In this document: in pieces, positions 11,501-41,600 of the stretch
How positions within the stretch are numbered: the first letter of the stretch is position 1
How the letters are laid out: every line of letters begins with the position of its first letter
Origin: Bilabrum cf. latius
Taxonomy: Eukaryota
Length of the DNA stretch: 64,000 nucleotides
Assembly: GCA_965178125.1 (NCBI GenBank)
Contig: OZ237753.1
Location: 186,001-250,000 of the forward strand
Reading direction: 5' to 3'
Notes under the pieces: generated by a model
The model's database searches: none
What the model saw: only the letters and a program-made list of their open reading frames with translations
What the model was told of the DNA's origin: nothing
Made by a program: the position numbers and the translations under genes

Positions 11501-12521
11501 AAAGCTCCCCGCGAACCTTCTCTAGCTCATCCTCGATCAGCTGCTTTCGCCTCATCGCGTCGTCCGCGTCTGCCTTGAGCTGCCTGCACATCTGCTGTGC
11601 CCTAAGAAACGTGTCCCTGATCGCGCTGTCGTGGATCTTCGCGTGTTCCCTGACGGCGTTGATCCGCTCCATCGTGTTTCCGATGACGCCGGCCAGGCAC
11701 TCTCGCTTGACCTTCTCGTTGGTCGTCTGGTGCCTTCCCACCAACTTGCACACGGCGCGATTCACACTGATCGGGTTGATGAAGTGCTCGAGCTCTGAAT
11801 CGCCGTACTTGCGGTTGAAAACTGAGGCAAGAGCGTCTTCCACCATGTCGGTGGCCAGCGGCATCTGGGGAATGCCGTGGTGGCCGCCTTCTGCCTCATC
11901 CTCCTCCATCTCGTCCTCATCCTCGTCGTCGCAGTCCTCGTCAGCTACCTAACCGGGCAGTGCGGGCGGAGCCACGGCCCCACGAGCGCGGCGACCGCGC
12001 CTAGATGCAGCTGCAGAAGATGATGATGCAGCGGCAGCTTTGCTTCGTGTGGCGCGGCCGGTACGCTTGGCCGGTGGCTACGCTGCAGTGGCTCGTCCGG
12101 GTCTAGCCGTCTTCCTGCCGCCGCGTGTCTTCGGAGAGCGGAGCGACGCGATTTCGTGACGACGTGACTTCATTGTCTGAGACAGTCCCGATCCATTTGA
12201 AGCGCTAGATGCCGCCGCATGTCGCCTGGTCGCTCCTCCCGTAGCTTTCGACGCAGATCGAGCCGAGCCGGCTGTCTTCTTCGCCGAGGAAGCCGAGCGC
12301 AGCTGGCGACGCTTCAAGGTTGCTCGTTCAGCTGCTTTCATTGATCTTTCAACTGAATCAGTGCTGCCCTCCTTGCGATGGCGCTTCATGTCAACGTTGG
12401 AATCGGCCTCTGCCAACGAGCGCTTCTCGCCCAGCTTCGGTTCACTTGCACTCGACTCATCGTCAATAGCAACGGGCTATCGTTTTGGAATAGGAATACC
12501 AGTACTTCCTGGTAGAGCCAT
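8562..12521 (-). CDS. Kinesin-14 (Kar3/KIFC1-like, C-terminal motor), ~1319 aa
   Basis: Neck LHNKVQDLRGSIRV, P-loop YGQTGSGKT, switch motifs NEHSSRSH and DLAGSE, HVPFRNSKLT. Long coiled-coil stalk and basic N-terminal tail. One frame from ATG 12521 to TGA 8562 with TAGs at 12477, 12078, 11949, 10470 and 8766. Confidence 0.93.
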
Positions 12522-12685: not shown

Positions 12686-15600
12686 ATGGTGCACCCATTG
12701 GTGCATAGCTTCTTTCCTGGGTAGAATATTGTACATTCAACGTTTGCACGGCTGCACTCAGACGAATGGAGCCTGATAGTCGCGAGAGTCGGTGTCTTAG
12801 AGGTGTACGATCTAGTTCGTCACAACGTGAGCTACATCCTCAGCTGTGCACCGTATGCTCTTCATGAAATTATAAATTATGCATCTTTATTTGTCAACTT
12901 GTTCCTGTCCGCAGAAATTCGGGAAGGTGGCATCGCTACGACTCGTGTCCAGCCTACCAATCGTTGAGGCCCCTACGGATTTGCAACGATTACCAGTCCG
13001 AGGACGTCCAGCCCGGGCACTTACGCGCGCCCCAAAAGTGGACCTATTGCTTGTATCGTACAGAGATGCCCGGGTAGCCATCCTTGCCTTTGACCCGTTT
13101 TCGTGCCGGATTGTGACTGCAGCAACGCTTGGATTGATGGCCCTCGCAAAGTAGGCTTTGGCTGAGAAGGAAGCCGGCAGCGCAGCAGGTGGGCTATATG
13201 TTCCATCAAGACAGCTGGGCTACTCTGGCACGGGGCGCGTCTCGATGGACCCTCGCGGCAGGTGCATCGCGACCACGGTGGCGGACAACTGCCTAGTTCT
13301 CGTCCCGCTGCGCGGCGGCAGGGGCACTCTGTCCTCCATGCTGGACCTCGACGAGGATGGAACGGAGCTGACAGGGACGGCCACCGCCCCTGCCTCCTCC
13401 TCCTCTTCTTCTTCTTCCGCGTCTTCCTCGTCATCCACCTCCTCCTCCTCGTTGCAAGCGAGCGGTGCTGTGGGGCTGGGCAAGGGCACATGGCAAGGGT
13501 TTGAGGGGCCAGGGGCGGCAGACAGGTGCATCGGGACAGTTGGAGATGGGGATCGCAGCGAGTCGAATGGAACGCGCGGCAGAAAGAGGCGGAGGGCCGC
13601 GATGACCGGCGACAGCAACGGCGATGGCAGCGGCACCAGTGGCCCATTGCAAGCCCTGGCTGCCAACAGGCTAGGACTGGTCGTGAAGGAGCGAAGCAAA
13701 CGAGGGAATCTACCGCAGCATGTGCTCGCCCCACCGAGCGCGCTCAGTGATGACGTTATCGCAGCACTTGCTCGACCCCCGCTGGTCGCACGAATACCGA
13801 CGGTCTTGCGAGGTTGCACCGGTCCTGTGGTTGACATGTGCTTCTTGGCAGGATACGTGCACCCCACCGTGCTGGTGCTGCTTGACGGGCCGGTCGGGCC
13901 TCAGGGGCCGGCGAGGATCACTGCATACCGCGCTAATAGGCTAGTTGCAGCTCTGCAGCTCTCAGGGTATGGCCCTACCTAGGGGCTGTCGATGCTGTGG
14001 CAGGTTGATGGGCTGCCTCACGACGCAATGAGGGTGGCGGCTTGTCCCCAGGGTGGAGCCCTCGTGATTTCTTCCAGTTCCGTGGCGTTCGTCTCCGACT
14101 CTCGGAAGTGCGCCGCCGCGGTGAATGGCCACGGGCAGGCGTTGCTTGACGCGGGTCGCATACCGACGGACACGGCCTCTTCACGACTTGCCGTCGCGAT
14201 CGAAGCTCCTAGGTTCGAGTGGATTTCGCCGACACAGATGCTGTTAGGTACCCGTAGGGGCGACGGCCTCCTCGTGAGGCTAGACACGGACGGCCCCGCC
14301 CGCGTGAATGGCATCTCAATGCGCCGAGCGGGCATTATCGCCTCTGCGCCGTCGTGCCTCTGCTCCCTTTGGGACGAGGGCGTCGCGTTTTACGGCAGTG
14401 CGGTGGGGGACAGCTATCTGCTGCGGCTGGAAGGCAAGACAGAGGACGGGGGAGCGGACACTGGGGCTGAGGCGCCCGCGCAGGGTGCGGTTTTGCAAGA
14501 AGCCTCGAGTGGTGTGGGAGGCGTGCCTGGGCTGGGTGGACCAGCCAGTGGTGCCGGTGCCGGTGCCGGTGCAGAGGACGAGGACGAGGACGCATTCCTG
14601 TTTGCCAAATCCGGCAGTGCAGGTAGAGATGTGGGTACTTCGCAAAAGCAGGGTGCCGGAGGAGGCAGTGCCGCGACCGATGCCTTGTCTGTGTCTGTCC
14701 TGTCGACGCTGCCGGGGGTGGGACCCATCACGAGCGCTGGACTGTCGCTGGTGCAGCGCAATGCGAGCTCTGAAGACAGCCTGGCAAGGCAGCCCCGGTA
14801 GCGACAGATCGTGGCTAGTGCTGGGTACGGCAGGGGTGGCGCGCTCATCCAGGTGAGGCAAGGGCTGGACCTGAGGCATGAGGTAACGCTGGACATGGCG
14901 GGCGTGGCAGGGATGTGGACGGTGCAGGTAAGCAAGTCGTTTCGAAACCGGTCTAAAGATAGCACCAAAGGTGCAGCAGCCTCGAGCGGGGTGAGCACTG
15001 AAACAAGTGGCAGCGGGGGCGATGGAGATTCCAAGCAGCAGGCCAGCGGTGCCGGTCAGGCCGCGGATGAGGAAGGCAGCGACGGAGAGGACGAGGATGA
15101 AGATGAAGAAGATGATTTCATGCTCATGTCGATGCCACTACAGCACAAGACTCGCGTTCTCGATCTCAGCCAAGAGGAAGGCCTGTCCGAGGTGGGCCAG
15201 GAGCAGTCCCCCTTCGCACACGGCAGGCGCACTCTGGCGGCTGGCGTGCTAGCCGGGGGTGACGTTGCCGTGCAGGTGGTGCCCGATGGCCTAAGGGTCG
15301 CGTGGGGCATGGCGGCTAGCTGCAGAGCAAGCCTGCTGCCCGAAGCCGTGTCGGGTGCTGTGAAGAAAGCTGGGGCCTCGTCTACGGGTGCTAGTGGCAG
15401 CTCACCCGCGGGTTTCGTGAGAGCTGATGTCCAGGCTGACACGGCCACCCTTCTAGATAGCACTGGCTCTTGGCACGTTCTCCGATGTTTGTGTGCCGAA
15501 ACCGCCACGTCTATCGATGCCGGGACCCCGGAGTGGGAGTCCGTAAGCCTTGGCGATGTCCCTGCAGCCGTCCTAGGTGCGCTCTCGGCGTCTCCATGCT

Positions 15601-18600
15601 TCAAGGCAGGAGCTCGCACACTGGACGCACGTGGTGACTCTGATGACGAATCCGAGGATGATAGCATCTCGGCTTTGTCTCCGGATCGGGTTTTGCAGGT
15701 TAGGTCTGGCAACGTTGCAGTATTCCTTGGCGTTTGGTCCATCCGGAAGCACGCAGCATCGGTGGTCGCTAGCGGCTGCCTGTCTTTGCGAGCGTACGAC
15801 GATGAAAGTGGGGCCGTTGCGCGCGCCCTTACTCGGGACCCAGCTGAGGCAGCGCGTCGGCTGCACGCCAACCGCACTGCAGGTGCAGCCAGCCAGTCAA
15901 AGGCGGGGGGCACACAGCAGTTTGACGCAGATGCTAGCCTTGCAAAGCAGCTGGCAGGTGCGTCCGATCATGCAACTGGTTCCAATATTGCGTTACCGGG
16001 CCTGGATGCTGCGGACTCGTCGGCTGCTCCGGCATCGGCTCCATCTGTAGCCCCTGGACTGCCTGGCTTGGACGGTCCAACGGACGGCGAGAGAGGATCT
16101 ACGTCCACCGATGGGGTACTTCCAGGGCTGGATGCTGGTGGAGCCTTTGGGACCTCGAGCGCATCCCAGCCAGCTGTATCCAGCTAGGCTCCTCAGGCCG
16201 GCCGCAAGCGAGGCAGGGAAGAAATAGAGGGTCGTTCAGGCCCAAACGGTGGTGCCATGGGAGGTGATGCCGCCAGCAACGGCGACAGCTCAACACTTCG
16301 GTCGTACGGATTAGAGGGCGGGACGCTGCTCATGGCTGGATGCGCGGATGGTTCCTTGAGCATCTTGGATGCTCGCACGCTGGTTCTGCTGGGCCGATTC
16401 GATCAGGCCGCGGCACTGCCACACGTTCTAGCCACAAATACCGCATTCGATCCGGCGCTTGCAGCTCCCGGCCAGCATACCCCAGTAGCTGTTCCAACCC
16501 CGGTGCTTGACAGAGACGGAAACATCGACCGAGACCTCCTGCTGCCCCCGCTGGACGACGCGCTCCTGGTCGAAGTGCCCGACTCGATTGTCAGCGCGGA
16601 CGTTGGACGAGCCGGGGAGTTGGCAGAGGGTAGTTCAGACGACGGGGAGGAAGATGATGAAGACGACGAGGCTGGGGCCAAATCTGTGTTCCTGGTTCTA
16701 TTTAGTGGTGGATGCGATGTAGGTGCGTATCGGCTCTGCGGAGTGGCACCGTCAGCGGAAAGACTCGAAGCGCAGGCCAGTGGTGGACACTTCCCGGTCG
16801 TTGATCCGCATGTGACCAATGCCGTCCTGCAGCGAAGCAGAGCAGCCTGTACCGGAGAGTCGTTCCAGCCGTGGGTTGATCGCTCCACTGTATCTGCTGG
16901 GGTCGGTGGAGGGACGGCTGCCAGCCCAATCGTTCCAACGGGCCGTGAGATCACGTCATCATCTGGCCCTGGGACTGATATCGTTGCGCCTGACTGCGTG
17001 TGTGGTGCAGTGGCCAGGCACGACCTCGGCTCCGTACCGCGCTTTGTGCGAAGCACCGCGTGCTCCACTCGCCCTGTCTCAGACGAGTCCGCGCGTGCAC
17101 GGGCGAGGAATCGCGCTATGCAGATGGCCGAATACCTGTGCTCTCTTGCTGCATGCCAGCAATCGTCCAGCTCCATTCGTAGTGGTCGGCTGTCTCTGGC
17201 TCGAGGCACCGGCGACGAGGATGACGATGGCACAGCAGCGCTCGAGGGTGCCATGGGTGGAAGCACCGAAGCCGAAGCGAGAGGTTAGCAGCCAGATGGC
17301 CAGGCATCGATGGAAGAGCTTGAAGGACAGAGCAGGGCAGACGCTGTTGCAGGTGCACAAACTACCGCAGGCAAGCTTGAGCCTCCCTCTGTGCTCAGCC
17401 TCTTGGAGCCGGGGCCGTGGCCACGGATCCAGCCCATGCATGATGCAGGGGGCTGGAGCGGAGCGACTGTGCTAACAGCGAGGCCTGTGTCAGTGGTGAG
17501 CTCGAGAGGTGCGCCTGTCGTGACACCGCTGAGACCCCCTCCCTGCCTTCCAGAAACAATGCAGCCGGCCGCATTCGCCAAGGCAGCATCTGCGGCTGCT
17601 TCATCTGGCGGTAGTGTCAATTCGAGCAGCATGGTCGGATATGGCCACCGCCACGGCAGGCACGGACGCAAGAGAACCTCGCTCGTAGTAACAGACACAA
17701 ATGACGAAACGCAACCCAGTGGCAAGACTGCAAGCGCAGGCAGCGACTCCACAGACCGCCTGGCTGCGCCTTTGCCTGGGCTCCAGGCAAAGGCTTTGGA
17801 TTCCTTCGGCGCTGCAGACGGATTGTTGTTGTCAGGTTCGCTGCCCAACGTACCGATGGATCCGCGCGATGCCGCGAAGAAAGCGGTGGCGTCCTGGGGA
17901 CAGCTACCTGTGGACATGCTGCCAGACGCAGCAGTCACACGCACGCAGCCCTGGCCCATCCTGTGCATCACGCGCGTGTCTTCACCGCACTTGCCCGATG
18001 GCATCGCCGTTAGCTTTAACCACAGCCCCGTGGTTGCGCTCTCGACGCCCATTCAGCGGGATGACGTGCCCCCAGCGCAGGCGGATGATTCTGCCGGCGT
18101 GCTGGCGGACCGGCAGTCCCACGAGGACGGTGGTGGGTGGTTCGTCGCCTCTGGCAGCCCTTGCCTTTTGCGGCGGCGCCCGGCTAGGTGCACGGTTCGC
18201 TTCGTAGTCCCACTCAAGCGTTCGGAGCTTGTGGGTGACCCTGCCACGCAGCCGCCGTTGCCGCCGGGTATGCACCCTCAGTTGGCCATCGCCACGGCGC
18301 AGCGGTCCACTCGTCACCTTGTCCCAGTGCTTGTTGCCATACTTGAAGACGAGTCCCCAAGGGAATCTGGCCCTGCGGAGGAGGAGGAAGAGGAGCAGAG
18401 GATCGCATCTCTCGGTCCAGAGTACCGCCAACGCGATGAGGGGCCTCACAGGGAGGCTCTGCCTGTGCCTGAGGAGCAGCTGGCGCAGCCTGCGGTAGTG
18501 CAGCAGCGGATTGTCTTGCTCATGGGCAGCCGAATGGAAGAGGTGCAGGCGATTCCCCTCCGCAAGCACGAGCGCGTGCTTTGCTGCAAGGAGCTTGGGT

Positions 18601-19727
18601 TTCCCTTCGCTCCTGGCGGTCCGGAAGATTCTGTGCTCGGGGTGGGCACTGGAATGCTCACCCCGCGAGCTTCCGAGGAGACTCCAAGGGGCCGCCTGCT
18701 TCTCTTCAGGATCTCGTACCCGCCCGTGCCTGCCAAAGACGAAGCTGCGTAGGCTGCCAGCAGCAAGGGCGCCTTGCGTACTCCTTCACTGCAACTGGTC
18801 GCACAGCAAGAGGTGGGCGGCCACGTCACGGCCTTGTCCGACGTCATGAAGCAGCACCCGCCGAGCCCGCAGATGCCGCGGCCGCTCCCGCCCTCGTACT
18901 ACGTAGTGGCACACGCCGCAGCAGAGATCATCACGTTCTAGTGGCTGTTCGGAAAGGGCGTGAAGCAGATGGACCGGAGGGCCATGCGCTGGAAAGCCAG
19001 CGACATCGTCAACCTGAAGCCAAAGTCCTTTCTTCTGCTCGCCGACGGCAGGCAGTCCATTGCATTCGCAGACCTGCGAGCCTCAGTTGATCCTGCCACT
19101 GGGTCCGTGGCATCCGCGTACGTGCACATGGTCGCCTCCGACACGGAACAGGTGCAGTGCACTGCAGCGGGATACCTCGCCTTCGGCTCGGCTCTTCGGA
19201 TGGTGGCCTTCGACTGCGAGGGCAACGTGAGCGTGGCCAGGTACTCTCCTTCTTAGATGAAGACGGTCCTTTTCCGCGCTAAAGACGGCAGGCTGGCAGG
19301 GACGGTGCGCGGGGCGACTGCGATCGAGCCGCTCCCAGTGTACGGAGCACGGCTGCTGTCTCCGGCCGCTGCCATCCAGGGGAAGAAGCAGAGGATGGGC
19401 TTGCTTCTGCCCACATCTACCGGTGGATTGAGCGCCATGGTGGCAGTGGATCCGTCCGAGCAGTCGAGACTGCAGGTGCTGCAGGCCCTCCTGAGGCAGG
19501 CCTTGCCCGCTGCGGCGGGAGGCAACAAGGAGGCAGCCATGTAGGCGCGTGTGACGTACCGCCCCGGCATGCCCACCCACGGGGGCCTCCTGGATGGGCG
19601 CGAGCTCTGGAGGCTCGCTGGGCTGCCGGGCCCCACAAGGCAGGACATGTGCCTTGCGCTCGGCACGACGGAGCATCGCGTGCTGGGCAATTTGCAAGAC
19701 CTCGAGGCGGCGTTGGGATTGTTTTGA
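12686..19727 (+). CDS. CPSF1: Cleavage and polyadenylation specificity factor subunit 1 (CPSF160), ~2317 aa, intron 12827-12914
   Basis: Motifs LIVARVGVLEVY, DLLLVSYRDARVAIL, VSMDPRGRC, DMCFLAGYVHPTVLVL, GLPHDAMRV, FYGSAVGDSYLL, LGVGTG..EETPRGRLLLF, and C-terminal LLDGRELWRL...LGTTEHRVLGNL. One frame with 10 TAGs, ending TGA 19725-19727. Confidence 0.88.
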
Positions 19728-19929: not shown

Positions 19930-22900
19930 ATGGCGACGTCAATACGATATTCTGCCGCCATCTTAATCTTCGGTCTATGTCTGATCGATCACAGTTTTGC
20001 GAGCGCAGCTTAGACACAAGTTGAGGTCCTGAAGTAGGTCGATTGGCAAGCCAGCCGCACATCGCTTGCTTCTGGCACAGCTCTGGGCGGGATGGAAGAC
20101 CTCGACCAAAACGGGATTCCAGAAGTCGTATTTCAAGTGCACAGGGCGGCAACGAACGAAAGTCATATCGGTGTAGTCGCTCTGAGCAGCCGGTTCAATT
20201 TGCAACCTGCAGACGCGAGCGCTGGCGGTGCCCACGCAATCGCATCCCCTGGCGCGACTCTCCTCGACGAATATGCCAGTTCCGGCGATATTGATGGTGA
20301 CGATATTCCAGACCTGTTCGTGATGAGGGCAAACTCAAGCTCCCTCGCAGTTCTGCTGCTCTCGCGCTCCGGCCATGTGAAGGAGGAGTTCATTTACAAC
20401 TCTAGCGGGCTTGCTGGCTGCTACCTCCCGATAAATATCGGTGATCTTGATGGAAATGGCGTCAATGATGCAGTGATTGCGTGCAGGCAAAGCAAGGCGT
20501 TCTGGGTCCAGCTATTGAACGCGGATGGCAGCTCAGTGGGCCGCACCAACATCAACTCGACCGACCTCGGGCTAGAGTCCACGACAGCAAGTAGGTTTGG
20601 GGAGTATGGATTTGGCATGGGAGACTTAAACAAGGGCGGGAGATCATGGCTAGCGATGCCAGATTCTGTCCCCAAGAGTGATCAGCAGCACATCCATCTC
20701 GTGCAACTTGATGACTCGGGTGTCCCCGTACAGAGCACCCTCAGGACCATTGACAGACCGGAGACTTACACTGGTGAAATGTTCGGCTCAAACGCTCGAA
20801 ACGCCGGTGACCTGGATGGGGATGGCGTGAACGACATCTACGACGACGGCATGGTACTGCTGATGACAGCAAACGGCACAGTCAAGCAGACTGTGCAAAC
20901 TGGCGGGCGCGCGGCGCGTCCAGGACCTGTCCCTCCTCTTGACATGGATGGTAACGGCGTACCTGACCTCTTTACAGACACTGGCGTCCAGCTGATGGGT
21001 CACGGTGGAGCTGGTCCCCGCACGGTGCGAGGCATTGAGTACTCGAGCTCCGATCTAGCTGACGACGATTTCTCGTGGGTAGCAGAGTCGCAGGCCTACA
21101 CATCGAACGGGACCACGCACGACGTTGCCAGCGCATCTGTTGCCAGGTCCAACCGCACTATCGCCCTGGAGCAGACTGGGTGTGCAGAATCCAGAGCCTA
21201 CGCACCCCTGGGCGCGCTGCGAGGCAACGTCAGCTTCAGCTACGATTACACCCTGTCCAAGACGACGAACTCGTCCGGTGACGCCCGCATCTATCTGGCT
21301 GTTGGAGATAGCATCAATGGGACCGATCTCTTGGCAGAGCAGCGACTCGTCGATGCGGACCCCCCAGGCCAGCAACGGACGAGCACCCTGCGAGCTCAGG
21401 GCCTCAGCGGGCACGAGCAGGCTTGGCTGCTGATTCGATTGCGGGGTATTGATCCCGGGGCTCGCAACGGCAGTGCTGGTTGTTTCACTTCCCACCGTAT
21501 TTTCGATGCAACTGATGCTCCGGTCGACTGCAGCGGTGCCGTTGGCCTGCAGTGCGCATCCAACGAGGGCGCCGAGTCGGCGTCGCTGCAGCTTCAGTTC
21601 GCGCCGTGGAGTCTGCAGACCAGGTACGTGGCGCCCTCACCATCTCCGACTGCCTCGCCGACACCGACTCCAGTGAGAATATATGAACGACTCGTAATTA
21701 AAGGCGCTTCCTTGCTTGTCATGTGCCTAGCTTTCTACTTCTTGCCTCGATCCTTTGTCGCAGTCAGCTACCCCCACCGTGACTCCGAGCGCAAGTCCCT
21801 CCACCACCCCCCAAGCTGAACTTGTGCGGGATACCAATACGGTGGCCCATATTGGAGTCAACTATATCACCACGCACCACGATGCGACCTACTTCGGCTT
21901 CAACCAACAGCGCACTGCCGACCCTGTCCTGCGTCGCATCAAAGCTGAATCTGGCAAGATGGACCTCTTCGACAACTCCTTCATCCGGCTTGGCGAATCT
22001 TCAGAGCCGATCTTTCCCGGGGGACGGCCATACTACGACTATGGGCAGTTCGCAAGGTTGCCTCCTACTGTGACAGCATCGGGAAGGGAGATCACGCTGA
22101 TGGCCATCACGCAACCGGCAAACAACTATCATGTTGGAGCCCTCACCGTCAGTGCGGATAATTCTTCCGAATTTCGCTACAAGACAACCAGTGCAGGCCC
22201 CTCCACCTTTTTGAAGCTCAGTACTTTTATCGCACCTGCTAGGTCTATGGTCGCCTTTGAGGGCCACGACGGGTACGTTCGGGTCGCCGTTGTTGCCCTT
22301 GTCCGTACGGATTGGTACGGCCTTTCGATTGTGGCATTCGACAGTGCCGATGACACTCCCTACAAGGAGCAGATTGTGTTAGACGGGATTGCAAATGAGT
22401 TCAGCATGTTCGTAAGATCCATTGAGAAGAGCGAAGACGGCAAGGGCATCTATGCTGTGGCAGACCGTGACGACTCTAGAACGCTGCTTCGGATCGACTT
22501 CGGTCCTGATGGCACCACAAATATCACTAGTCTCGTCGATTCAAGCTCTTTTCACTACAGTGGACTCATGTGGTTCAGTGGCAAGCTGTACCTGACGCGA
22601 GGGTCCACTTCTTCAGGCTTATTGTACACGTTCGACCCGGACAGCGGGGAGCTTGAGCGCGTGGCTGGGGTGCGGTCGGATGCAGCACTTGCGAGGCCTG
22701 GTTCGATCTGCAACGGAACGCTGTACTACGTGGTGCGTTTTGGTAGTGGATTCGATACTGGTGTATCGATTGGGATGATCAGTTCGTCCCATGAACACTT
22801 GGGTGAGATAGAGATCGACAGCGACGCCAAGCTGGTGCGAGAGACCAACCATCCCATCAGTGCAGAGCAGAGATACTTCGACGCTACCACTGCAATAGGA

Positions 22901-25900: not shown

Positions 25901-26242
25901 GAACGAGTCGAAGGAGTTCAGGCGCCGGGTGGGCCGCAGGCTCCATCTGGACGAGGCAGTGACGGGGGAGACGGTGCAAGCACCGGTGTGATTGTCGGGG
26001 CAGCTGTTGGGGCCGTCATCATAGCCGTTGCTCTTGTGGTTGGAGGCCTGATGCTGTGGGGGCAACAAACGGGTAGTGGTCCGTTTGGGAGCATGGCCGC
26101 CAAGGCGAAGGGCTACCACAGCACTGATCCAAAATCGGCAGTGGCAACTAGCGGGCCAGGAGTGGCAGCAGGAGGGTTGCGCGCAGTCGACAATCCCATG
26201 CTTGGGTAGCACCCTGCTGGCTTCTCCACGCGCACGGTATGA
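19930..26242 (+). CDS. Type I membrane protein: signal peptide, FG-GAP repeats, Ser/Pro/Thr linkers, propeller-like region, EGF-like repeats, TM (~2073 aa, intron 21673-21763)
   Basis: ATG 19930 gives MATSIRYSAAILIFGLCLIDHSFA, reachable only through TAGs at 20011 and 20035. Several GDLDGDGxxD motifs and 4 EGF-like Cys repeats (24740-25260). CFDGELNGQETGIDCG motif. TM VIVGAAVGAVIIAVALVVGGLMLW. Further TAGs at 23672, 24431 and 26207. Stop TGA 26240-26242. Confidence 0.85.
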
Positions 26243-26665
26243 TCCTGAATTGTGCGTTTCCAAGCTTTTGGGACTGCGATTGGAAGCAGTCATGGTTATG
26301 AGTTTAGACCATGTACAACAGGCCTGGTGTGTAATGGGCCTAGTTACATCCCGGTGGCCTAGGCCTAAAGCCACGTTGGCATTTTGTCCTTGAGTGAAAC
26401 TACAGACCGTACACAGCACTGTCAGTGTCGCTATAGCCTGTGAGTATCGCAATCAAATACTTTGGACTCAGAGTGCGTCACCAAGCTCCCTTGTCGTACA
26501 CACATGCAGGTTCGCGTCCGACCTGGCTATGCCGGCCGATTCATGCAGTTTCCCCAGCCGAGGCTGAAGGGCTGCGATGCCCAAATCCGGCCTTCGCTAA
26601 AGGTAAGCACAACTACATCTAGTTCTTGAATTCAATGCTTGGGTTCTTTGCCAGCTAGCTTCACA

Positions 26666-28348
26666 TTACAAGCCTTCTGCTCCTTCTGGCTTGCCTGCCC
26701 CTTGCGTGTGGCCATCATGACGGATCACCACCTCTTTCACACCGTCCCAAACTGCTAATAGATCCTCTGGCAGACGAGGCCGCCTTGCAGGGTGCTCTCT
26801 GTGGTGTACGCGAAAGTACACGCAATACCGTATAAATGGCGAGTAGTTCACGCCGACCCTGTGTGGCAGGAGTGGGTGCGCCACAACGACGTCTCCTGCC
26901 TTCAGCAGCACCTGCTTAGGGCCCTTCGACAGGGGCGGTCGCGGGGCAGCGCCAGCCACCCAACCCGCGCCATCCCTCTTGATCTTTTCTGCCACTTCCA
27001 CGTGGGTCCCTGGATACACGGCGAGGTTGCCCATGTCCTCGTGATCTGCGTCAGATAGCATGATGCCGACGAGTAGAGAGAAGGGGGCTGCTGTGCGCTT
27101 GTCCATGCCGTCAATGTGCCACCGAGAGTCGGGGCCTTGCAGCCTGGCCGGCCCCGGCCCCGTTGCACTCATCGCACCTGATGACGCCCGTTCGACCTTC
27201 TCGTCCCAGTCCACCGTGCCGTGGCCTTTGCTCTCCTCTTCCCCCGGGGGCTGCGGGAACCGGAGTGCGATTTGGGCCGCCCTCGGGGGGACGCACTGCC
27301 CGTGTCCCACGATGGAATTCACGGCGCCCCAAGCCGGCGATTTCCACATGAGGGACAGTATCTCTGGCGACTGCGACAGCTGCACGCCCCCGGCTGCTCC
27401 CACCTTCCCCAGCAGCTCGCTTACCATGGGGTGCACCTTGGCCTGTTCTGCTGCCTTGCCAGACAGACCCGCGCCGTCTCCCTGTGGGGCGGTATCGGCT
27501 GTTGCATCAGACTTGGGAAGACTCCCTGCGCCAGCACTTGCCTTTACGGCGGCGCCAGCACCGCCAGCACGCATTGCGCCGGCCATGCCGCTGTTGATTC
27601 GTCGCAATGCCGCCCACACGAGTCGTCGCGGGATGATTCCAGGAAAAATGCAGTACCCATCATGCACTAGACTTGCAAGCTGGATATCACTCAAGGAGCA
27701 TCGCAAATCAGGATGCGATCGAGGATCCACCGCGGGCAGCGAAAGGCCGCCTGGGCCAGCCCCAAAACCTCTGGGCGCCGTTCCTCCCGCGCCTCCGAGC
27801 GCTGAGCCGAGACCTGAAAGAATTGACGAAAATATGCCGCCTCCAGATAATGCCCCTGCCGCAGGCTTACCCGCTGCACCCGCCCCTCCGCCAAGCAATG
27901 GCTTTGATGATGCTATCCTTGCGCATGCCTCCGGCGACATACTCGCCGCACGTAGAGTAAACCTGGCGGGATCCTCCCCCGCCGCTGCATTAGCAGCAAA
28001 TGCCATTCCAGCCGGGCTGATTCCGATGAAGTATCCGGGGTGCTGTTCAGATTCAAGCGCGAATGCACCAGTTGCAGTTCGAAGCATTCTGAACCGGGCA
28101 CTCTCCAGAGTGGGCGACCCATTTCCATCGACGGTTGGCCTTGCCTCTCTCAAAGGATTTGTGATTTGTAGCGACTTACCCGGAAATGCCAACGATTGAA
28201 GAATCACCGTGATGTTGCCACCTGCGGAAGCTGGCAGCTGCACGAGTTTCCACTGCGCAAACGGCCCCTTACCCCCAAGGCCAGTAATTCGGCCACCATG
28301 CACACAGTTTAAGGATTTTCCCGTTGGTAGCACCAGCGAGAAATTCAT
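26666..28348 (-). CDS. Phytanoyl-CoA dioxygenase (PhyH)-like 2OG-Fe(II) oxygenase with an extra N-terminal beta-rich domain (~560 aa)
   Basis: Motifs LVHDGYCIFPGII, WHIDG (HxD), LLVGIMLSD..GNLAVYPGTH and LKAGDVVVAHPLLPHRVGVN..IRYCVYFR. Ends TAA at 26666-26668. Start taken at the first ATG, 28348. Confidence 0.8.
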   Translation of the reverse strand: MNFSLVLPTGKSLNCVHGGRITGLGGKGPFAQWKLVQLPASAGGNITVILQSLAFPGKSLQITNPLREARPTVDGNGSPTLESARFRMLRTATGAFALESEQHPGYFIGISPAGMAFAANAAAGEDPARFTLRAASMSPEACARIASSKPLLGGGAGAAGKPAAGALSGGGIFSSILSGLGSALGGAGGTAPRGFGAGPGGLSLPAVDPRSHPDLRCSLSDIQLASLVHDGYCIFPGIIPRRLVWAALRRINSGMAGAMRAGGAGAAVKASAGAGSLPKSDATADTAPQGDGAGLSGKAAEQAKVHPMVSELLGKVGAAGGVQLSQSPEILSLMWKSPAWGAVNSIVGHGQCVPPRAAQIALRFPQPPGEEESKGHGTVDWDEKVERASSGAMSATGPGPARLQGPDSRWHIDGMDKRTAAPFSLLVGIMLSDADHEDMGNLAVYPGTHVEVAEKIKRDGAGWVAGAAPRPPLSKGPKQVLLKAGDVVVAHPLLPHRVGVNYSPFIRYCVYFRVHHREHPARRPRLPEDLLAVWDGVKEVVIRHDGHTQGAGKPEGAEGL

Positions 28349-29693: not shown

Positions 29694-32600
29694 ATGGCAT
29701 TTAGACATGTACGGATATTGAGCTCATTAAATTGCCATAAGAAGCGGGGCAATGACCATGGGCTTGAAGCCCCGGCTTGCAGGGGATATCCTTAGCAGCA
29801 TCGAAGCCAACTCTTCCTTGCCAGCTTGGGTGCTCTAGTTGCTGTCTTCACGACAAGCACTCTAGCGCAGCCACCAACTACTGCGACAGTACCTTTGCCT
29901 ATTCGAATGATTGATGAGGTTGTGGAGATCGGTCGGCTGGGCCGCGGTGGATGGCCCGATGACGAGGTGCTCGAACACAACGACACTTTCGCCTCTGGCT
30001 CGGCCCCCATCGGGGACTTTGATGGCGACGGGGTGCCCGATGTCATGATTGGAGCGCCTTTTGCTAACGTTGGTGCCAAGAGTAAGCGGGGCCAGGCGTG
30101 GACGGTGCTTCTGCATCGCAACGGCACAGTCAAGGCTGCCAACCCAGTGGCGCCGGAAGGGAGCCTCATGGACGCAGCGATGGGCAGCAACTACTACGCC
30201 GGAGGAAACATTGACGTGATGCCTCCAGGCTGGGCTGAGAACCAGACTATGCCCCTTCGAGTCCTAATCTCTGCCAACTCTACTGCTACAGCCAGAGGGT
30301 ACCTCGTGCGCATGAACGAGAGCTCGGGTGCGGCCTCTTCCTTCACCGTGCTGGGGAGCAACACCGCGGGGCTGGGCGCGCTTCCATCTGGGTTTGGCTT
30401 CTCGATCGCGTCCATCGGCGACTTCAACGGGGACGGTGTGACTGACATTGCTGGTGGCAACCCGAGCGCCGATAGCTTCGAAGGCAACATCACCGTGCTT
30501 CTCATGAACGCAAACACGGACACCGTCAACAGGACCATCGAGCTCGACCACCACAGCTTCAACACTAGCGGCGGAAGCGGTCTCCCTGAGCATGTGCATC
30601 GCCTGGGCACCGCACTAGCTGGGCTGGGCGACCTGGACGGGAACGGAAGGGACGATTTCGCTGCAGGGGCATCGTGGTCGAGCGTCGGGGGGGCGCATAC
30701 TGGCAGCGTAGTAATTGCATTCGCTTCCAACGTTACCGTGGGAGTGTCGCACTTCGTAATGATTGCGGAGAACACCGGCGGGTTTTCGTTTGATCTCCTC
30801 AGCTCAGACTACTTCGGCTCCAGCATCGAGCACCTGGGTCGGTTGAACGGCTCAACGGGCGACTGGATTGCAGTGGGCGCCGCTGGCAGGGATGCCCCCG
30901 GTGAGCCTGACGCCGGAGCCTTCTTCGTCATTCGGATCAACAGCAGTGGACACGCCGATGAAACGATTGCATTCGTTCAGACTGGCTCTGGCGGCATGCT
31001 GGACGGGTATCTGTCGCGGGACGACGGGATGGGCTCCTCCATATCAGCCCTGGGGGATGTGAGCGGGAATGGCAGGATGGACCTGTTCGTTGGAGCCTCT
31101 TCCTGGAATGGTGCTAAGCAAGGCGCGGGCAAGGGTTTTGTGCTAATGGGCGTGGGTCTGACTCCTTCACCAAGTCCATCCGTGACTCCATCCCAGAGCC
31201 TCACTCCCTCTGTCACGCCATCCACCAGCTCGACACCGTCGGTATCGCCCGCGCTCGCTGGGACGGTGCTGTCGGCCGTACTGCAGATACCGCCCATCGA
31301 TGACAACATGGATCAATTCTTCGGAAGTCACGTCGTATCAATCGGCGATCTGGACGGCGACGGCATCGAGGAGCTGGCCGTGTATTCGGAGCTGGACAGG
31401 GAGGCTGGATTCTGGGCAGGCGCTGTATGGATCATGTTCCTGCATCGCAATGGCACCACGCGCGAGTTCGTGAAGATCTACAGCAACTCCGATGGAGTGC
31501 CAATTCCCAGTCCGCAGGCCTTTCAAAGCCGCTTCGGGGCCAGTCCATCGCGGCTGGACCAGCCCAGTGGCGATGATGGTCACATGCCTCGTCTGGTGGT
31601 CGGGGCCTACAGGCAGGATTCCAGCTTCGGGGCTGTGTACATTCTGAGGCTACGATCCAACGGCACGGTTGCGCACATGCAAGGCATCTTTGACGGCGTC
31701 GGTGGGTTGCCCTCGGGCACGATATCGGGTGCGGACAACTTCGGGCACGGCATCGAAGCGGGCCTGGGCGATGTGGATGGAGATGGCATGAATGACATCG
31801 CTGTGAGCGCGCCGCTGTGGGACCATCCGTCTCGCAGCGATGCCGGCCGTGTGTTTGTGATGTTCCTGCGTGGCAATGACACGGTGCGAGACTTCACGAT
31901 TCTGTCTGTGGCGAGTGGTCAGGGACTGGAAGCGCTCGGTACATCGGGAAGATGGCTGGGTCGCGGCATTGCTGCAAGACCCCCGAGACAGGCCGGCAAT
32001 CCTGTGGATCTGGTGCTGAGCGATCCGGTGTTTGATCGTATCCATGTGATTCGTCTGGCATCGAACGGCACCGTCATTCCGGGATCCATCCAGACCATCG
32101 GGGACGGTCAGGGCGGCATGCCGCCAGGCAGCATCGACTCTGGCAGCTTGTTCGGCGCCACGATTCATCTGGCTGGCGACATGGACGGCGATGGGATCCC
32201 GGACCTGGTGTTGTCAGCACCGAGTGACAACACGGATGGGTCTAGCACGGGTGCAGTGTATATTCTGTACATGCAAGGCGGGGACCAGACGGATCCGGTG
32301 CGGACGTACACGCGGATCTCTCGGCTGGAGCCGGCGCTGATCAGGTTCCTGACGAATGCGACGCAGTTCTCATCAGCAGCACCAGCGGGCGATGTGGACG
32401 GGGACGGCGTGATGGATCTGGTGATCGGCATGCGTGACTTCGAGCTGATGGACAGGGTATCGGCAGATGATGGAGCCTTCTTGGTGTTGCTGATGGGCGG
32501 AATGGTGCCCAGCGTGTCACCGTCCATCACGCCATCAATCAGCGTGACTCCCTCCGTCACACCGAGCCAGAGCCCCACCCCGAGCATCACACCGTCCGTG

Positions 32601-35600
32601 ACACCGAGCGCATCTCCCGCTCCAGCTGCAGCCGGCACGGTGCTGTCTGCCGTGCTGCAGCTCCCGCCAGTCGATGACGCAAACGACGAGCACTTCGGCA
32701 GCCACGTGGTATCGGTCGGCGATCTGGATGGCGACGGCATCGATGAGCTGGCCGTGTACTCGGAGAAAGACAGCACGGGCGGTACTGAGTCCGGTGCGGT
32801 GTGGATCCTGTTCCTGCACCGCAATGGCAGGGCCCGCGAGTCTGTGAAGATCTACAGCCAATCGAGCGGCCTATCAGAGACCATCCCAGCCAACAGCCGC
32901 TTCGGGGCCAGTCCATCGCGGCTGGACCAGCCCAGTGGCGATGATGGTCACATGCCTCGTCTGGTGGTGGGAGCGATTCACCAGGCGTCAAGCTTAGGCT
33001 CTGTGTACATCATGCGACTGCATTCCAACGGCACGGTTGCGCACACCCAGCGCATATTCAATGGCGTCGGTGGGTTGCCCTCGGGCACGATATCGGGTGC
33101 GGACAACTTCGGGCACGGCATCGAAGCGGGCCTGGGCGATGTGGATGGAGATGGCATGAATGATATCGCTGTGAGCGCGCCGCTGTGGGACCATCCGTCT
33201 CGCAGCGATGCCGGTCGTGTGTTTGTGATGTTCCTGCGTGGCAATGACACGGTGCGAGACTTCACGATTCTGTCTGTGGCGAGTGGTCAGGGACTGGAGT
33301 CGCTGATGACTGGGCGTATATGGCTGGGTCGTGGGATGGCCGCTATGCCGCCGAGACAGGCCGGCAATCCTGTGGACCTGGTGCTGAGCCATGTGACTGT
33401 TGCAGAGCTCCACGTGGTCCGGCTATCATCGAGTGGGACTGTCATTCCGGGATCCATCCAGACCATCGGGGACGGTCAGGGCGGCATGCCGCCAGGCAGC
33501 ATCGACTCTGGCAGCTTGTTCGGCGCCACGATTCATCTGGCTGGTGACATGGACGGCGATGGGATCCCGGACCTGGTGGTATCAGCACCGAGTGACGACA
33601 CCGACGGGTCCGACACGGGTGCAGTGTATATTCTGTACATGCAAGGCGGGGACCAGCCGGATCCGGTGCGGACGTACACGCGGATCTCTCGGCTTGGTTC
33701 AGCACTGATGCCGTTCCTGCCCAACGCAACGACACTGGACGCAGCTGCACCAGCGGGCGATGTGGACGGGGACGGCGTGATGGATCTGGTGATCGGCATG
33801 CGTGACTTCGAGCCTTTCCCGGTCACTACAGCAGAAGAGGGTGCCATCGCCGTGATGTTCATGGGTGGTGCATTACCCAGTGCGTCCCCAACCAGCACAC
33901 CAACACCGTCTGTGACTCCGTCTATGACTCCATCCCAGAGCCCCACTCCCTCTGTCACGCCATCCACCAGCTCGACACCGTCGGTATCGCCCGCGCTCGC
34001 TGGGACGGTGCTGTCGGCCGTACTGCAGATACCGCCCATCGATGACAACATGGATCAATTCTTCGGAAGTCACGTCGTATCAATCGGCGATCTGGACGGC
34101 GACGGCATCGAGGAGCTGGCCGTGTATTCGGAGCTGGACAGGGAGGCTGGATTCTGGGCAGGCGCTGTATGGATCATGTTCCTGCATCGCAATGGCACCA
34201 CGCGCGAGTTCGTGAAGATCTACAGCAACTCCGATGGAGTGCCAATTCCCAGTCCGCAGGTCCTTCAAAGCCGCTTCGGGGCCAGTCCATCGCGGCTGGA
34301 CCAGCCCAGTGGCGATGATGGTCACATGCCTCGTCTGGTGGTCGGGGCCTACAGGCAGGATTCCAGCTTCGGCGCTGTGTACATTCTGAGGCTACGATCC
34401 AACGGCACGGTTGCGCACATGCAAGGCATCTTTGACGGCGTCGGTGGGTTGCCCTCGGGCACGATATCGGGTGCGGACAACTTCGGGCACGGCATCGAAG
34501 CGGGCCTGGGCGATGTGGATGGAGATGGCATGAATGACATCGCTGTGAGCGCGCCGCTGTGGGACCATCCGTCTCGCAGCGGTGCCGGCCGTGTGTTTGT
34601 GATGTTCCTGCGTGGCAATGACACGGTGCGAGACTTCACGATTCTGTCTGTGGCGAGTGGTCAGGGACTGGAAGCGCTCGGTACATCGGGAAGATGGCTG
34701 GGTCGCGGCATTGCTGCAAGACCCCCGAGACAGGCCGGCAATCCTGTGGACCTGGTGCTGAGCGATCCGGTGTTTGATCGTGTCCATGTGATTCGTCTGG
34801 CATCGAACGGCACCGTCATTCCGGGATCCATCCAGACCATCGGGGACGGTCAGGGCGGCATGCCGCCAGGCAGCATCGACTCTGGTGGCTTGTTCGGCGC
34901 CACGATTCATCTGGCTGGCGACATGGACGGCGATGGGATCCCGGACCTGGTGTTGTCAGCACCGAGTGACAACACGGATGGGTCTAGCACGGGTGCAGTG
35001 TATATTCTGTACATGCAAGGCGGGGACCAGACGGATCCGGTGCGGACGTACACGCGGATCTCTCGGCTGGAGCCGGCGCTGATCAGGTTCCTGACGAATG
35101 CGACGCAGTTCTCATCAGCAGCACCAGCGGGCGATGTGGACGGGGACGGCGTGATGGATCTGGTGATCGGCATGCGTGACTTCGAGCTGGTGGACAGGGC
35201 ATCGGCAGATGATGGAGCCTTCTTGGTGTTGCTGATGGGCGGAATGGTGCCCAGCGTGTCACCGTCCATCACGCCATCAATCAGCGTGACTCCCTCCGTC
35301 ACACCGAGCCAGAGCCCCACCCCGAGCATCACACCGTCCGTGACACCGAGCGCATCTCCCGCTCCAGCTGCAGCCGGCACGGTGCTGTCTGCCGTGCTGC
35401 AGCTCCCGCCAGTCGATGACGCAAACGACGAGCACTTCGGCAGCCACGTGGTATCGGTCGGCGATCTGGATGGCGACGGCATCGATGAGCTGGCCGTGTA
35501 CTCGGAGAAAGACAGCACGGGCGGTACTGAGTCCGGTGCGGTGTGGATCCTGTTCCTGCACCGCAATGGCAGGGCCCGCGAGTCTGTGAAGATCTACAGC

Positions 35601-38600
35601 CAATCGAGCGGCCTATCAGAGACCATCCCAGCCAACAGCCGCTTCGGGGCCAGTCCATCGCGGCTGGACCAGCCCAGTGGCGATGATGGTCACATGCCTC
35701 GTCTGGTGGTGGGAGCGATTCACCAGGCGTCAAGCTTAGGCTCTGTGTACATCATGCGACTGCATTCCAACGGCACGGTTGCGCACACCCAGCGCATATT
35801 CAATGGCGTCGGTGGGTTGCCCTCGGGCACGATATCGGGTGCGGACAACTTCGGGCACGGCATCGAGGCGGGCCTGGGCGATGTGGATGGAGATGGCATG
35901 AATGATATCGCTGTGAGCGCGCCGGAGTGGGACCATCCGTCTCGCAGCGATGCCGGTCGTGTGTTTGTGATGTTCCTGCGTGGCAATGACACGGTGCGAG
36001 ACTTCACGATTCTGTCTGTGGCGAGTGGTCAGGGACTGGAGTCGCTGATGACTGGGCGTATATGGCTGGGTCGTGGGATGGCCGCTATGCCGCCGAGACA
36101 GGCCGGCAATCCTGTGGACCTGGTGCTGAGCCATGTGACTGTTGCAGAGCTCCACGTGGTCCGGCTGTCATCGAGTGGGACTGTCATTCCGGGATCCATC
36201 CAGACCATCGGGGACGGTCAGGGCGGCATGCCACCAGGCAGCATCGACTCTGGTGGCTAGTTCGGCGCCACGATTCATCTGGCTGGCGACATGGACGGCG
36301 ATGGGATCCCGGACCTGGTGGTGTCAGCACCGAGTGACAACACGGATGGGTCTAGCACGGGTGCAGTGTATATTCTGTACATGCAAGGCGGGGACCAGCC
36401 GGATCCGGTGCGGACGTACACGCGGATCTCTCGGCTTGGTTCAGCACTGATGCCGTTCCTGCCCAACGCAACGACACTGGACGCAGCTGCACCAGCGGGC
36501 GATGTGGACGGGGACGGCGTGATGGATCTGGTGATCGGCATGCGTGACTTCGAGCCTTTCCCGGTCACTACAGCAGAAGAGGGTGCCATCGCCGTGATGT
36601 TCATGGGTGGTGCATTACCCAGTGCGTCCCCAACCAGCACACCAACACCGTCTGTGACTCCGTCTATGACTCCATCCCAGAGCCCCACTCCCTCTGTCAC
36701 GCCATCCATCAGCTCGACACCGTCGGTATCGCCCGCGCTCGCTGGGACGGTGCTGTCGGCCGTACTGCAGATACCGCCCATCGATGACAACATGGATCAA
36801 TTCTTCGGAAGTCACGTCGTATCAATCGGCGATCTGGACGGCGACGGCATCGAGGAGCTGGCCGTGTATTCGGAGCTGGACAGGGAGGCTGGATTCTGGG
36901 CAGGCGCTGTATGGATCATGTTCCTGCATCGCAATGGCACCACGCGCGAGTTCGTGAAGATCTACAGCAACTCCGATGGAGTGCCAATTCCCAGTCCGCA
37001 GGTCCTTCAAAGCCGCTTCGGGGCCAGTCCATCGCGGCTGGACCAGCCCAGTGGCGATGATGGTCACATGCCTCGTCTGGTGGTCGGGGCCTACAGGCAG
37101 GATTCCAGCTTCGGCGCTGTGTACATTCTGAGGCTACGATCCAACGGCACGGTTGCGCACATGCAAGGCATCTTTGACGGCGTCGGTGGGTTGCCCTCGG
37201 GCACGATATCGGGTGCGGACAACTTCGGGCACGGCATCGAGGCGGGCCTGGGCGATGTGGATGGAGATGGCATGAACGATATCGCTGTGAGCGCGCCGCT
37301 GTGGGACCATCCGTCTCGCAGCGATGCCGGTCGTGTGTTTGTGATGTTCCTGCGTGGCAATGACACGGTGCGAGACTTCACGATTCTGTCTGTGGCGAGT
37401 GGTCAGGGACTGGAAGCGCTCGGTACATCGGGAAGATGGCTGGGTCGCGGCATTGCTGCAAGACCCCCGAGACAGGCCGGCAATCCTGTGGACCTGGTGC
37501 TGAGCGATCCGGTGTTTGATCGTGTCCATGTGATTCGTCTGGCATCGAACGGCACCGTCATTCCGGGATCCATCCAGACCATCGGGGACGGTCAGGGCGG
37601 CATGCCGCCAGGCAGCATCGACTCTGGCAGCTTGTTCGGCGCCACGATTCATCTGGCTGGCGACATGGACGGCGATGGGATCCCGGACCTGGTGGTGTCA
37701 GCACCGAGTGACAACACGGATGGGTCTAGCACGGGTGCAGTGTATATTCTGTACATGCAAGGCGGGGACCAGACGGATCCGGTGCGGACGTACACGCGGA
37801 TCTCTCGGCTGGAGCCGGCGCTGATCAGGTTCCTGACGAATGCGACGCAGTTCTCATCAGCAGCACCAGCGGGCGATGTGGACGGGGACGGCGTGATGGA
37901 TCTGGTGATCGGCATGCGTGACTTCGAGCTGGTGGACAGGGCATCGGCAGATGATGGAGCCTTCTTGGTGTTGCTGATGGGCGGAATGGTGCCCAGCGTG
38001 TCACCGTCCATCACGCCATCAATCAGCGTGACTCCCTCCGTCACACCGAGCCAGAGCCCCACCCCGAGCATCACACCGTCCGTGACACCGAGCGCATCTC
38101 CCGCTCCAGCTGCAGCCGGCACGGTGCTGTCTGCCGTGCTGCAGCTCCCGCCAGTCGATGACGCAAACGACGAGCACTTCGGCAGCCACGTGGTATCGGT
38201 CGGCGATTTGGATGGCGACGGCATCGATGAGCTGGCCGTGTACTCGGAGAAAGACAGCACGGGCGGTACTGAGTCCGGTGCGGTGTGGATCCTGTTCCTG
38301 CACCGCAATGGCAGGGCCCGCGAGTCTGTGAAGATCTACAGCCAATCGAGCGGCCTATCAGAGACCATCCCAGCCAACAGCCGCTTCGGGGCCAGTCCAT
38401 CGCGGCTGGACCAGCCCAGTGGCGATGATGGTCACATGCCTCGTCTGGTGGTGGGAGCGATTCACCAGGCGTCAAGCTTAGGCTCTGTGTACATCATGCG
38501 ACTGCATTCCAACGGCACGGTTGCGCACACCCAGCGCATATTCAATGGCGTCGGTGGGTTGCCCTCGGGCACGATATCGGGTGCGGACAACTTCGGGCAC

Positions 38601-41600
38601 GGCATCGAGGCGGGCCTGGGCGATGTGGATGGAGATGGCATGAACGATATCGCTGTGAGCGCGCCGGAGTGGGACCATCCGTCTCGCAGCGATGCCGGTC
38701 GTGTGTTTGTGATGTTCCTGCGTGGCAATGACACGGTGCGAGACTTCACGATTCTGTCTGTGGCGAGTGGTCAGGGACTGGAGTCGCTGATGACTGGGCG
38801 TATATGGCTGGGTCGCGGGATGGCCGCCATGCCGCCGAGACAGGCCGGCAATCCTGTGGACCTGGTGCTGAGCCATGTGACTGTTGCAGAGCTCCACGTG
38901 GTCCGGCTGTCATCGAGTGGGACTGTCATTCCGGGATCCATCCAGACCATCGGGGACGGTCAGGGCGGCATGCCACCAGGCAGCATCGACTCTGGTGGCT
39001 AGTTCGGCGCCACGATTCATCTGGCTGGTGACATGGACGGCGATGGGATCCCGGACCTGGTGGTATCAGCACCGAGTGACGACACCGACGGGTCCGACAC
39101 GGGTGCAGTGTATATTCTGTACATGCAAGGCGGGGACCAGCCGGATCCGGTGCGGACGTACACGCGGATCTCTCGGCTTGGCTCAGCACTGATGCCGTTC
39201 CTGCCCAACGCAACGACACTGGACGCAGCTGCACCAGCGGGCGATGTGGACGGGGACGGCGTGATGGATCTGGTGATCGGCATGCGTGACTTCGAGCCTT
39301 TCCCGGTCACTACAGCAGAAGAGGGTGCCATCGCCGTGATGTTCATGGGTGGTGCATTACCCAGTGCGTCCCCAACCAGCACACCAACACCGTCTGTGAC
39401 TCCGTCTATGACTCCATCCCAGAGCCCCACTCCCTCTGTCACGCCATCCACCAGCTCGACACCGTCGGTATCGCCCGCGCTCGCTGGGACGGTGCTGTCG
39501 GCCGTACTGCAGATACCGCCCATCGATGACAACATGGATCAATTCTTCGGAAGTCACGTCGTATCAATCGGCGATCTGGACGGCGACGGCATCGAGGAGC
39601 TGGCCGTGTATTCGGAGCTGGACAGGGAGGCTGGATTCTGGGCAGGCGCTGTATGGATCATGTTCCTGCATCGCAATGGCACCACGCGCGAGTTCGTGAA
39701 GATCTACAGCAACTCCGATGGAGTGCCAATTCCCAGTCCGCAGGTCTTTCAAAGCCGCTTCGGGGCCAGTCCATCGCGGCTGGACCAGCCCAGTGGCGAT
39801 GATGGTCACATGCCTCGTCTGGTGGTCGGGGCCTACAGGCAGGATTCCAGCTTCGGCGCTGTGTACATTCTGAGGCTACGATCCAACGGCACGGTTGCGC
39901 ACATGCAAGGCATCTTTGACGGCGTCGGTGGGTTGCCCTCGGGCACGATATCGGGTGCGGACAACTTCGGGCACGGCATCGAGGCGGGCCTGGGCGATGT
40001 GGATGGAGATGGCATGAACGATATCGCTGTCAGCGCGCCGGAGTGGGACCATCCGTCTCGCAGCGATGCCGGCCGTGTGTTTGTGATGTTCCTGCGTGGC
40101 AATGACACGGTGCGAGACTTCACGATTCTGTCTGTGGCGAGTGGTCAGGGGCTTGATTCTGTAGAAGCAGTTAGCATTTGGAGTGGTAACGGGATGGTCG
40201 GTCGTGGGATGGCCGCTATGCCGCCGAGACAGGCCGGCAATCCTGTGGACCTGGTGCTGAGCCATTCGTTCTTTAGTCGTGTCTATGTGATTCGTCTGGC
40301 ATCGAACGGCACCGTCATTCCGGGATCCATCCAGACCATCGGGGACGGTCAGGGCGGCATGCCACCAGGCAGCATCGACTCTGGTGGCTAGTTCGGCACT
40401 ACGGTTCATCTGGCTGGCGACATGGACGGCGATGGGATCCAGGACCTGGTAGTGTCAGCACCACGAGACGACACCGACGGGTCCGACACGGGTGCAGTGT
40501 ATATTCTGTACATGCAAGGCGGGGACCAGCCGGATCCGGTGCGGACGTACACGCGGATCTCTCGGCTGGAGCCAGCGCTGATCAGGTTCCTGACGAATGC
40601 GACCCATTTCTCATCAGCAGCACCAGCGGGCGATGTGGACGGGGACGGCGTGATGGATCTAGTGATCGGCATGCGTGACTTCGAGCTGGTGGACAGGGCA
40701 TTGCCAGACGATGGAGCCTTCTTGGTGTTGCTGATGGGCGGAATGGTGCCCAGTGTGTCACCGTCCATCACGCCATCAATCAGCGTGACTCCCTCCGCCC
40801 CACCCTCTATAAGCTCAACGCCCTCAGTATCGCCGGCGCCTGCAGGGACCGTACTCTCAGCGGTATTACATCAGCCCCCTACCAATGACGCAAATGACCA
40901 GTGGTTTGGCAGCAATGTGGCATCGATCGGCGATTTGGATGGCGACGGCATTGACGAGCTGGCCGTCCTCTCTGAACTCGACGACTCCGGTGGCACTCAC
41001 TCTGGTGCGGTGTGGATCCTGTTCCTGTACCAAAACGGCACGATCCGTGAGTCTGTGAAGATCTACAGCCAATCGAGCGGCCTATCAGAGACCATCCCAG
41101 CCAACAGCCGTTTTGGAAACGGCCCGTCGCGTCTGGACCAGCCTAACGGCGATAGTGGGCACTTGCCTCGGTTGGTTGTGGGAGCGACTTAGCAAGAATC
41201 GTGGTATGGTTCGGTGTACATCATGCGACTGCGTCCAGATGGTACCGTGGCGCACACGCAGCGCATCTTCACCGGCGTCGGTGGCCTACCCAACGGCACA
41301 TTGTCTGGCGCTGAGCTCTTTGGGCAAGGTATCGAGGCGGGCCTGGGTGATGTGGATGGAGATGGCATGAATGACATCGCTGTGGCGGCTCCTCAATGGG
41401 ATCACCCATCGCTCAGTCGCGCCGGCCGTGTGTTTGTGATGTTCCTGCGTGGCAATGACACGTTGCGAGACTTCACGATTCTGTCTGTGGCGAGTGGTCA
41501 GGGGCTGGAGTCTTTGGGCACAACGAATATCTGGCTTGGCCGTGGAATTGCTGCAATACCCCCAAGATAGGCTGGAAATCCTGTGGATCTGGTGCTGAGT

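Follow-up and report, generated by a model that had tools for sequence, protein, structure and literature searches.

Does the TAA triplet at 26668..26666 on the minus strand, with which the reading frame of a PhyH-like dioxygenase ends, act as a stop codon in a genome that reads TAG as an amino acid? UAA and UAG are nearly always reassigned together and have been separated in a handful of lineages (PMC5304391, PMC10553269, PMC11687900). A further case would add independent evidence on the ways in which eRF1 and a tRNA with the anticodon CUA can split UAA from UAG, and it would differ from the known ones in that the genome is GC-rich and the usual stop is TGA rather than TAA. We analysed the triplet in the context of the whole 64-kb stretch of DNA around it, hereafter the window. 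Probably, UAG encodes glutamine here and UGA serves as the frequent and UAA as the infrequent stop, which matches NCBI table 15 and the code of Iotanema spirale.

The window has a G+C content of 60% and carries at least 12 genes spread over both strands. Pfam families on its ORFs comprise an ARM-repeat protein, a peroxiredoxin, SURF1, a kinesin-14-like motor, a CPSF1-like protein, an FG-GAP/EGF surface protein, the PhyH-like dioxygenase, a threonine aldolase, an ion channel, and a NACHT NTPase, and are eukaryotic as judged by these domain assignments. Introns are present but few. The window is probably nuclear DNA of a GC-rich, intron-poor, aerobic eukaryote, a view that we hold jointly with the proposed code.

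The reading of TAG becomes apparent when ORFs of at least 300 codons are counted under different stop sets. The standard set yields 25 such ORFs with 13,935 codons in total. If TAG is taken as sense, the total doubles to 28,727 codons in 37 ORFs, and frames of 7,466, 2,284, 1,518, 1,515, 1,479, and 1,347 codons appear. Taking TAA as sense instead of TAG changes little (16,332 codons in ORFs of this size). The CPSF1-like gene (12879..19727, plus strand; Pfam CPSF_A and Beta-prop_RSE1_1st) contains nine in-frame TAG and ends with TGA, and the kinesin-14-like gene (8562..12521, minus strand; Pfam Kinesin, E 8.7e-101) contains five after its first ATG and likewise ends with TGA. A giant gene of 7,446 codons (29694..52034, plus strand) carries 45 in-frame TAG and no TAA before its TGA. 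It is free of introns, and 42 of its 45 TAG lie beyond ORF codon 3,500. Antisense ORFs within it are spaced 2,742 bases apart, which points to near-identical long repeats.

For the codon counts we used 13 ORF segments with 18,521 codons, each starting at its first ATG or at an exon border. TAG occurs 102 times in frame, TAA and TGA not once, beside 166 CAA and 537 CAG; CAA makes up 24% (0.236) of the CAR codons. Some of the in-frame TAG fall within conserved domains, namely those of SURF1, threonine aldolase, CPSF_A, and the ion channel. Earlier, the sequence-only reading had noted that TAA is missing from the frames even though CAA is used, and the count bears this out. The zero is not circular: If frames are closed by TGA alone, the large ORFs become 2 to 56 codons longer, and at their 5′ ends only. 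TAA then appears at codon 14, 6, 2, and 56, never further in and never bounding a 3′ end. As TAG is sense and TAA is not, UAG and UAA are uncoupled in the window. Such an uncoupling had been proposed before; its first half, TAG in frame and TAA absent, is fully reproduced, while its second half, TAA as a stop, is represented by one gene. A code without a dedicated stop, of the Condylostoma or Blastocrithidia type, does not agree with the lack of both TGA and TAA inside the frames.

The same counts bear on the possibility that both UAR codons mean glutamine, as in NCBI table 6. TAA would then be rare owing to GC-richness, and the PhyH-like protein would run on to a TGA at 26470..26468. With a GC3 of about 0.65, A-ending codons are indeed a minority, but they still account for 15 to 47% of every NNR pair (0.148 to 0.473 in the 13 other pairs). 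If TAA and TAG were synonyms, these shares would place 15 to 48 TAA beside the 102 TAG, and none is seen. The probability of this outcome ranges from 8e-8 at the lowest NNR share to 1.2e-12 at the CAR share. The letters themselves are not avoided as a word: TAA occurs 330 times on the two strands together, and the counted ORFs, when read in their two off frames, contain 50 + 42 (= 92) TAA and 144 + 119 (= 263) TAG. At the resulting off-frame TAA/(TAA + TAG) share of 0.26, the probability of finding no TAA among 102 falls to 5e-14. The extension beyond the TAA of the PhyH-like gene, described below, adds to these figures, for it does not resemble coding sequence and would make the protein longer than most of its homologs. 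Glutamine at both codons is highly improbable.

With TAG as the only additional sense codon, the termini in the window amount to ten TGA and one TAA; a further gene extends past the edge of the window. Twelve genes had been assigned to TGA at first; the recount lowers this to ten. The FG-GAP and EGF ORFs belong to a single gene. These two ORFs join in frame, by frame arithmetic from their coordinates, through a GT..AG intron of 91 bases (21673..21763, plus strand), whose bases are skipped by one contig of sequencing run X8, and the gene ends with a TGA at 26240-26242. The assignment of the single TAA to the PhyH-like gene holds, with one TAA among 11 complete genes. A scan of the gaps between genes revealed no ORF of 70 codons or more that scores like coding sequence and ends with TAA.

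UAA might also be neither a regular stop nor sense, and instead be avoided or unassigned in a code in transit, so that the TAA of the PhyH-like gene would stop by default or leak. The zero in-frame count and the single TAA terminus among 11 would both fit, and the window is silent on how efficiently termination proceeds at TAA. However, one terminus in 11 is what base composition predicts, given off-frame TAA and TGA counts of 92:747 (about 11%), and the low share of TAA among the stops thus needs no special cause. In eukaryotes, UAA and UGA are recognized by the same domain of eRF1, and UGA clearly works here. Moreover, as detailed in the following, the coding signal stops at the TAA of the PhyH-like gene and a 90% identical relative ends exactly there. 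Taken as a whole, an unassigned UAA is unlikely, and we return to UAA as an infrequent but regular stop.

The PhyH-like gene extends from its first ATG over 26669..28348 on the minus strand, within a stop-to-stop ORF of 581 codons (26669-28411) that matches PF05721 (PhyH) at residues 426-528 with an E-value of 1.3e-06. Its coding sequence contains no TAG, 5 CAA, and 11 CAG. The lack of TAG is not significant, since about two would be expected among 16 glutamine-type codons. Reading through the TAA had been predicted to add about 65 codons before a TGA, and precisely 65 are found (26468..26665, minus strand), including one TAG, ahead of the TGA at 26470..26468. The GC3 of this stretch is 0.51. 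We scored it with codon log-odds trained on the other genes, using windows of the same length for comparison. At -0.178, it lies below all 275 coding windows (minimum -0.160, mean 0.217) and within the range spanned by the in-frame stretches behind the stops of the ten genes that end with TGA (-0.028 to -0.497). The mean of 132 intergenic windows is -0.264, and 34% of them score as high as the extension or higher. The segment 26468..26665 is best read as 3′ untranslated region.

The C-termini of homologous proteins lead to the same end point. Aligning them had been proposed by the sequence-only reading as a check. An exhaustive profile-free search provided 150 homologs, of which 147 align to query residue 530 or beyond. 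Projected onto the query, these proteins end at a median position of 565; 137 of the 147 end before residue 600, which supports an end at the TAA, and eight at or beyond 646. The PhyH-like protein ends at residue 581, whereas the read-through product would end at 646 and be longer than 139 of the 147 homologs. In the protein collection, the nearest relative is P0004, which has 90% identity and ends at exactly this final residue. It is known here as a protein alone, and should its stop be a TAG, the shared C-terminal end would carry no weight. When metagenomes were scanned with the PhyH-like protein, one distant locus emerged (31% identity) and no close relative with a readable stop codon, and a scan of genome contigs gave none either. 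The metagenome homolog has the same two-part build and ends 34 residues after an FRV motif, compared to 39 residues here. The N-terminal part of about 230 residues (27720-28348), which is without a Pfam match, also occurs in this homolog (L001, 6203-7300). Since even so distant a protein has this part in common, the two-part build is conserved.

Contigs from the sequencing runs X5, X6, X7, and X8, which come from three studies beyond this assembly, span the TAA without a single differing letter. The triplet is thus neither an assembly error nor edited. X5 is a DNA run, while X6 to X8 behave like RNA, although RNA is not on record for them and X6 is marked as probably DNA. The contigs over the PhyH-like gene in X6 to X8 stop at 26430, 26473, and 26638; the high-depth ones of X6 and X8, from two studies, stop at 26430 and 26473. 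With the TGA at 26470..26468 as the stop, a 3′ untranslated region of 0 to 38 bases would be left, a weak hint against read-through given that contig ends are not RNA ends. The aligned contigs show no loose poly(A) end at the 3′ end of the gene. Based on four independent lines, namely the fall in codon score, the positions at which homologs end, the end of P0004, and the identical letters, the TAA at 26668..26666 looks like a real terminator, as observed in one gene.

Depth over the PhyH-like gene (26430-28347) reaches 105, 12, and 15 in X6 to X8, compared to about 0 to 6 for its neighbors; in X6 itself, the neighbors lie at about 2 to 6. If X6 to X8 are RNA, the gene is highly expressed in several samples. 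We also searched the 400 bases 3′ of the stops for TGTAA, AATAAA, and ATTAAA. Four hits in 11 flanks form no consistent signal, and none of these words is usable as a poly(A) signal here. The TAA of the PhyH-like gene is itself part of a TGTAA word (26666-26670, minus strand), and two other stops are followed by TGTAA at distances of 79 and 90 bases. As the word is absent within 400 bases of most stops, we treat its presence at this terminus as chance.

Which amino acid is inserted at TAG can be judged from positions where homologs align. The most telling one is found in SURF1 (6628..6630, minus strand) at a conserved Trp-Gln position, where all 19 aligned homologs, including a 77% identical relative, have glutamine. 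In the threonine aldolase, the TAG at 53707..53709 (plus strand) corresponds to residue 127 of P0001, at which 76 of 120 homologs have glutamine and 31 alanine. A second TAG in this gene (53551..53553, plus strand; residue 75 of P0001) falls in a column with 74 R, 14 Q, 13 K, and 10 A among 120 homologs, and appears compatible with glutamine without being diagnostic. Leucine, the amino acid of other UAG reassignments, is present in 3 of 120 homologs at residue 127 and in none of the 19 SURF1 sequences. Glutamine is the best reading according to these three alignment columns, one of which is mostly arginine. Other sources were uninformative: The paralogous repeat columns of the giant protein are variable (N 28, L 20, H 16, F 16, Q 14) and hold no signal at TAG, a comparison of the CPSF1 C-terminus with solved structures gave no match, and three solved threonine aldolases were of no help at the TAG sites.

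The genes that contribute these columns show further features. The SURF1 frame is broken after a GTGAGC site (6106-6162), with an in-frame TGA at 6106-6108 that would be part of a presumed intron. The C-terminal part picks up again in the ORF 5560-6105, and the 77% identical relative, P0156, diverges at the same point. In the interval where the threonine aldolase and ion-channel genes converge, 4.1 copies of a 62-base unit follow one another with 96% matches (54436-54687). This repeat copies the last threonine aldolase codons together with their TGA. A 27-base unit occurs 3.0 times (701-782) shortly after the TGA that ends the ARM-repeat gene.

A glutamine codon within genes, UAG could still double as a stop toward the 3′ end of some of them, depending on context and in addition to UAA and UGA. 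The FG-GAP/EGF gene would allow for it, as it carries a TAG (26207-26209) 11 codons ahead of its TGA, and its end is possible at either triplet. In the other genes, however, the last TAG precedes the TGA by at least 48 to 69 codons, and no pile-up toward the 3′ ends is visible. A dual meaning of UAG is thus very unlikely.

UAG as glutamine with UAA and UGA as stops is called genetic code 15 (PMC9523058). In the window, UAG stands in frame within conserved domains and aligns with glutamine, UAA is not used as sense and ends one gene, and UGA ends ten genes and is never found in frame. If UAG is sense and UAA is a stop, CUA is the only possible anticodon of the decoding tRNA. A tRNA-Gln with this anticodon would read UAG and be unable to pair with UAA, and a tRNA with the anticodon UUA should not exist. 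By the simplest route, the CUA tRNA may have arisen from a mutated copy of a tRNA-Gln(CUG) gene. In turn, eRF1 is predicted to have lost or weakened its grip on UAG with its third-position G, and to have kept UAA and UGA. The 64-kb window contains no tRNA gene according to ARAGORN, no Rfam match at gathering score, and no eRF1 gene.

The closest known counterpart is the nuclear code of Iotanema spirale (Fornicata), described as reading UAG as glutamine and stopping at UAA and UGA (Panek et al, 2017; PMC5304391). By this account, it shares with the window the reassignment of UAG to glutamine while UAA stays a stop, and hence the same prediction of a tRNA-Gln(CUA) and a weakened eRF1 (PMC5304391). 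Panek et al drew this very inference on tRNA and eRF1 for Iotanema, and report a T32G exchange in the GTS motif of its eRF1 (PMC5304391). In contrast, UAA is given as the primary stop of Iotanema (PMC5304391), while TGA ends 10 of the 11 complete genes here. Iotanema is also described as an anaerobic flagellate (PMC5304391), whereas the window encodes SURF1, a cytochrome oxidase assembly factor. Our organism thus presumably has an aerobic mitochondrion and would be different from Iotanema.

A multi-gene stretch of 64 kb with 60% GC does not fit the usual picture of macronuclear DNA in phyllopharyngean ciliates. Two members of this group, Hartmannula sinica and Trochilia petrani, have been reported to read UAG as glutamine (McGowan et al, 2024; PMC11687900). 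As in the window, only UAG has changed to glutamine and UAA has been kept as a stop; in these ciliates, however, UAA is presented as the firmly fixed preferred stop (PMC11687900), a place taken by TGA here. The rhizarian exLh and phyllopharyngean ciliates from TARA, for which UAG = Leu is described (PMC5304391, PMC11687900), likewise split UAG from UAA and retain UAA as a stop, but differ from the window in the amino acid. The UAR = Gln code of table 6 is recorded for many ciliates, hexamitin diplomonads, and some ulvophyte green algae (Cocquyt et al, 2010; PMC2984419). Common to them and the window are TAG as glutamine and TGA as a working stop; unlike in table 6, where TAA also means glutamine (PMC2984419), TAA is found at 0 of 18,521 codons here and ends a gene.

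This kind of code is already known, while the lineage is probably new. More tentatively, and with slightly less than even confidence, we propose that the window documents an independent, undescribed origin of the change of UAG alone to glutamine, in a host outside metamonads and ciliates and as the first case with UGA as the main terminator. If true, this would show that UAG can be split off from UAA even where UAA is not the prevailing stop. Literature searches turned up no case of UAG as a sense codon in a stramenopile, a labyrinthulomycete, or a GC-rich eukaryote other than a ciliate. The best named SURF1 matches are Hondaea (40%), Chrysophaeum (40%), and Galdieria (35%), a labyrinthulomycete, a pelagophyte, and a red alga, and at these identities they may give a weak hint of kinship, being too distant for placement.

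In practical terms, gene callers that apply the standard code truncate the proteins of this organism at every TAG. Relatives in the databases look like such TAG-cut fragments, as exemplified by P0004, which starts at query residue 109.
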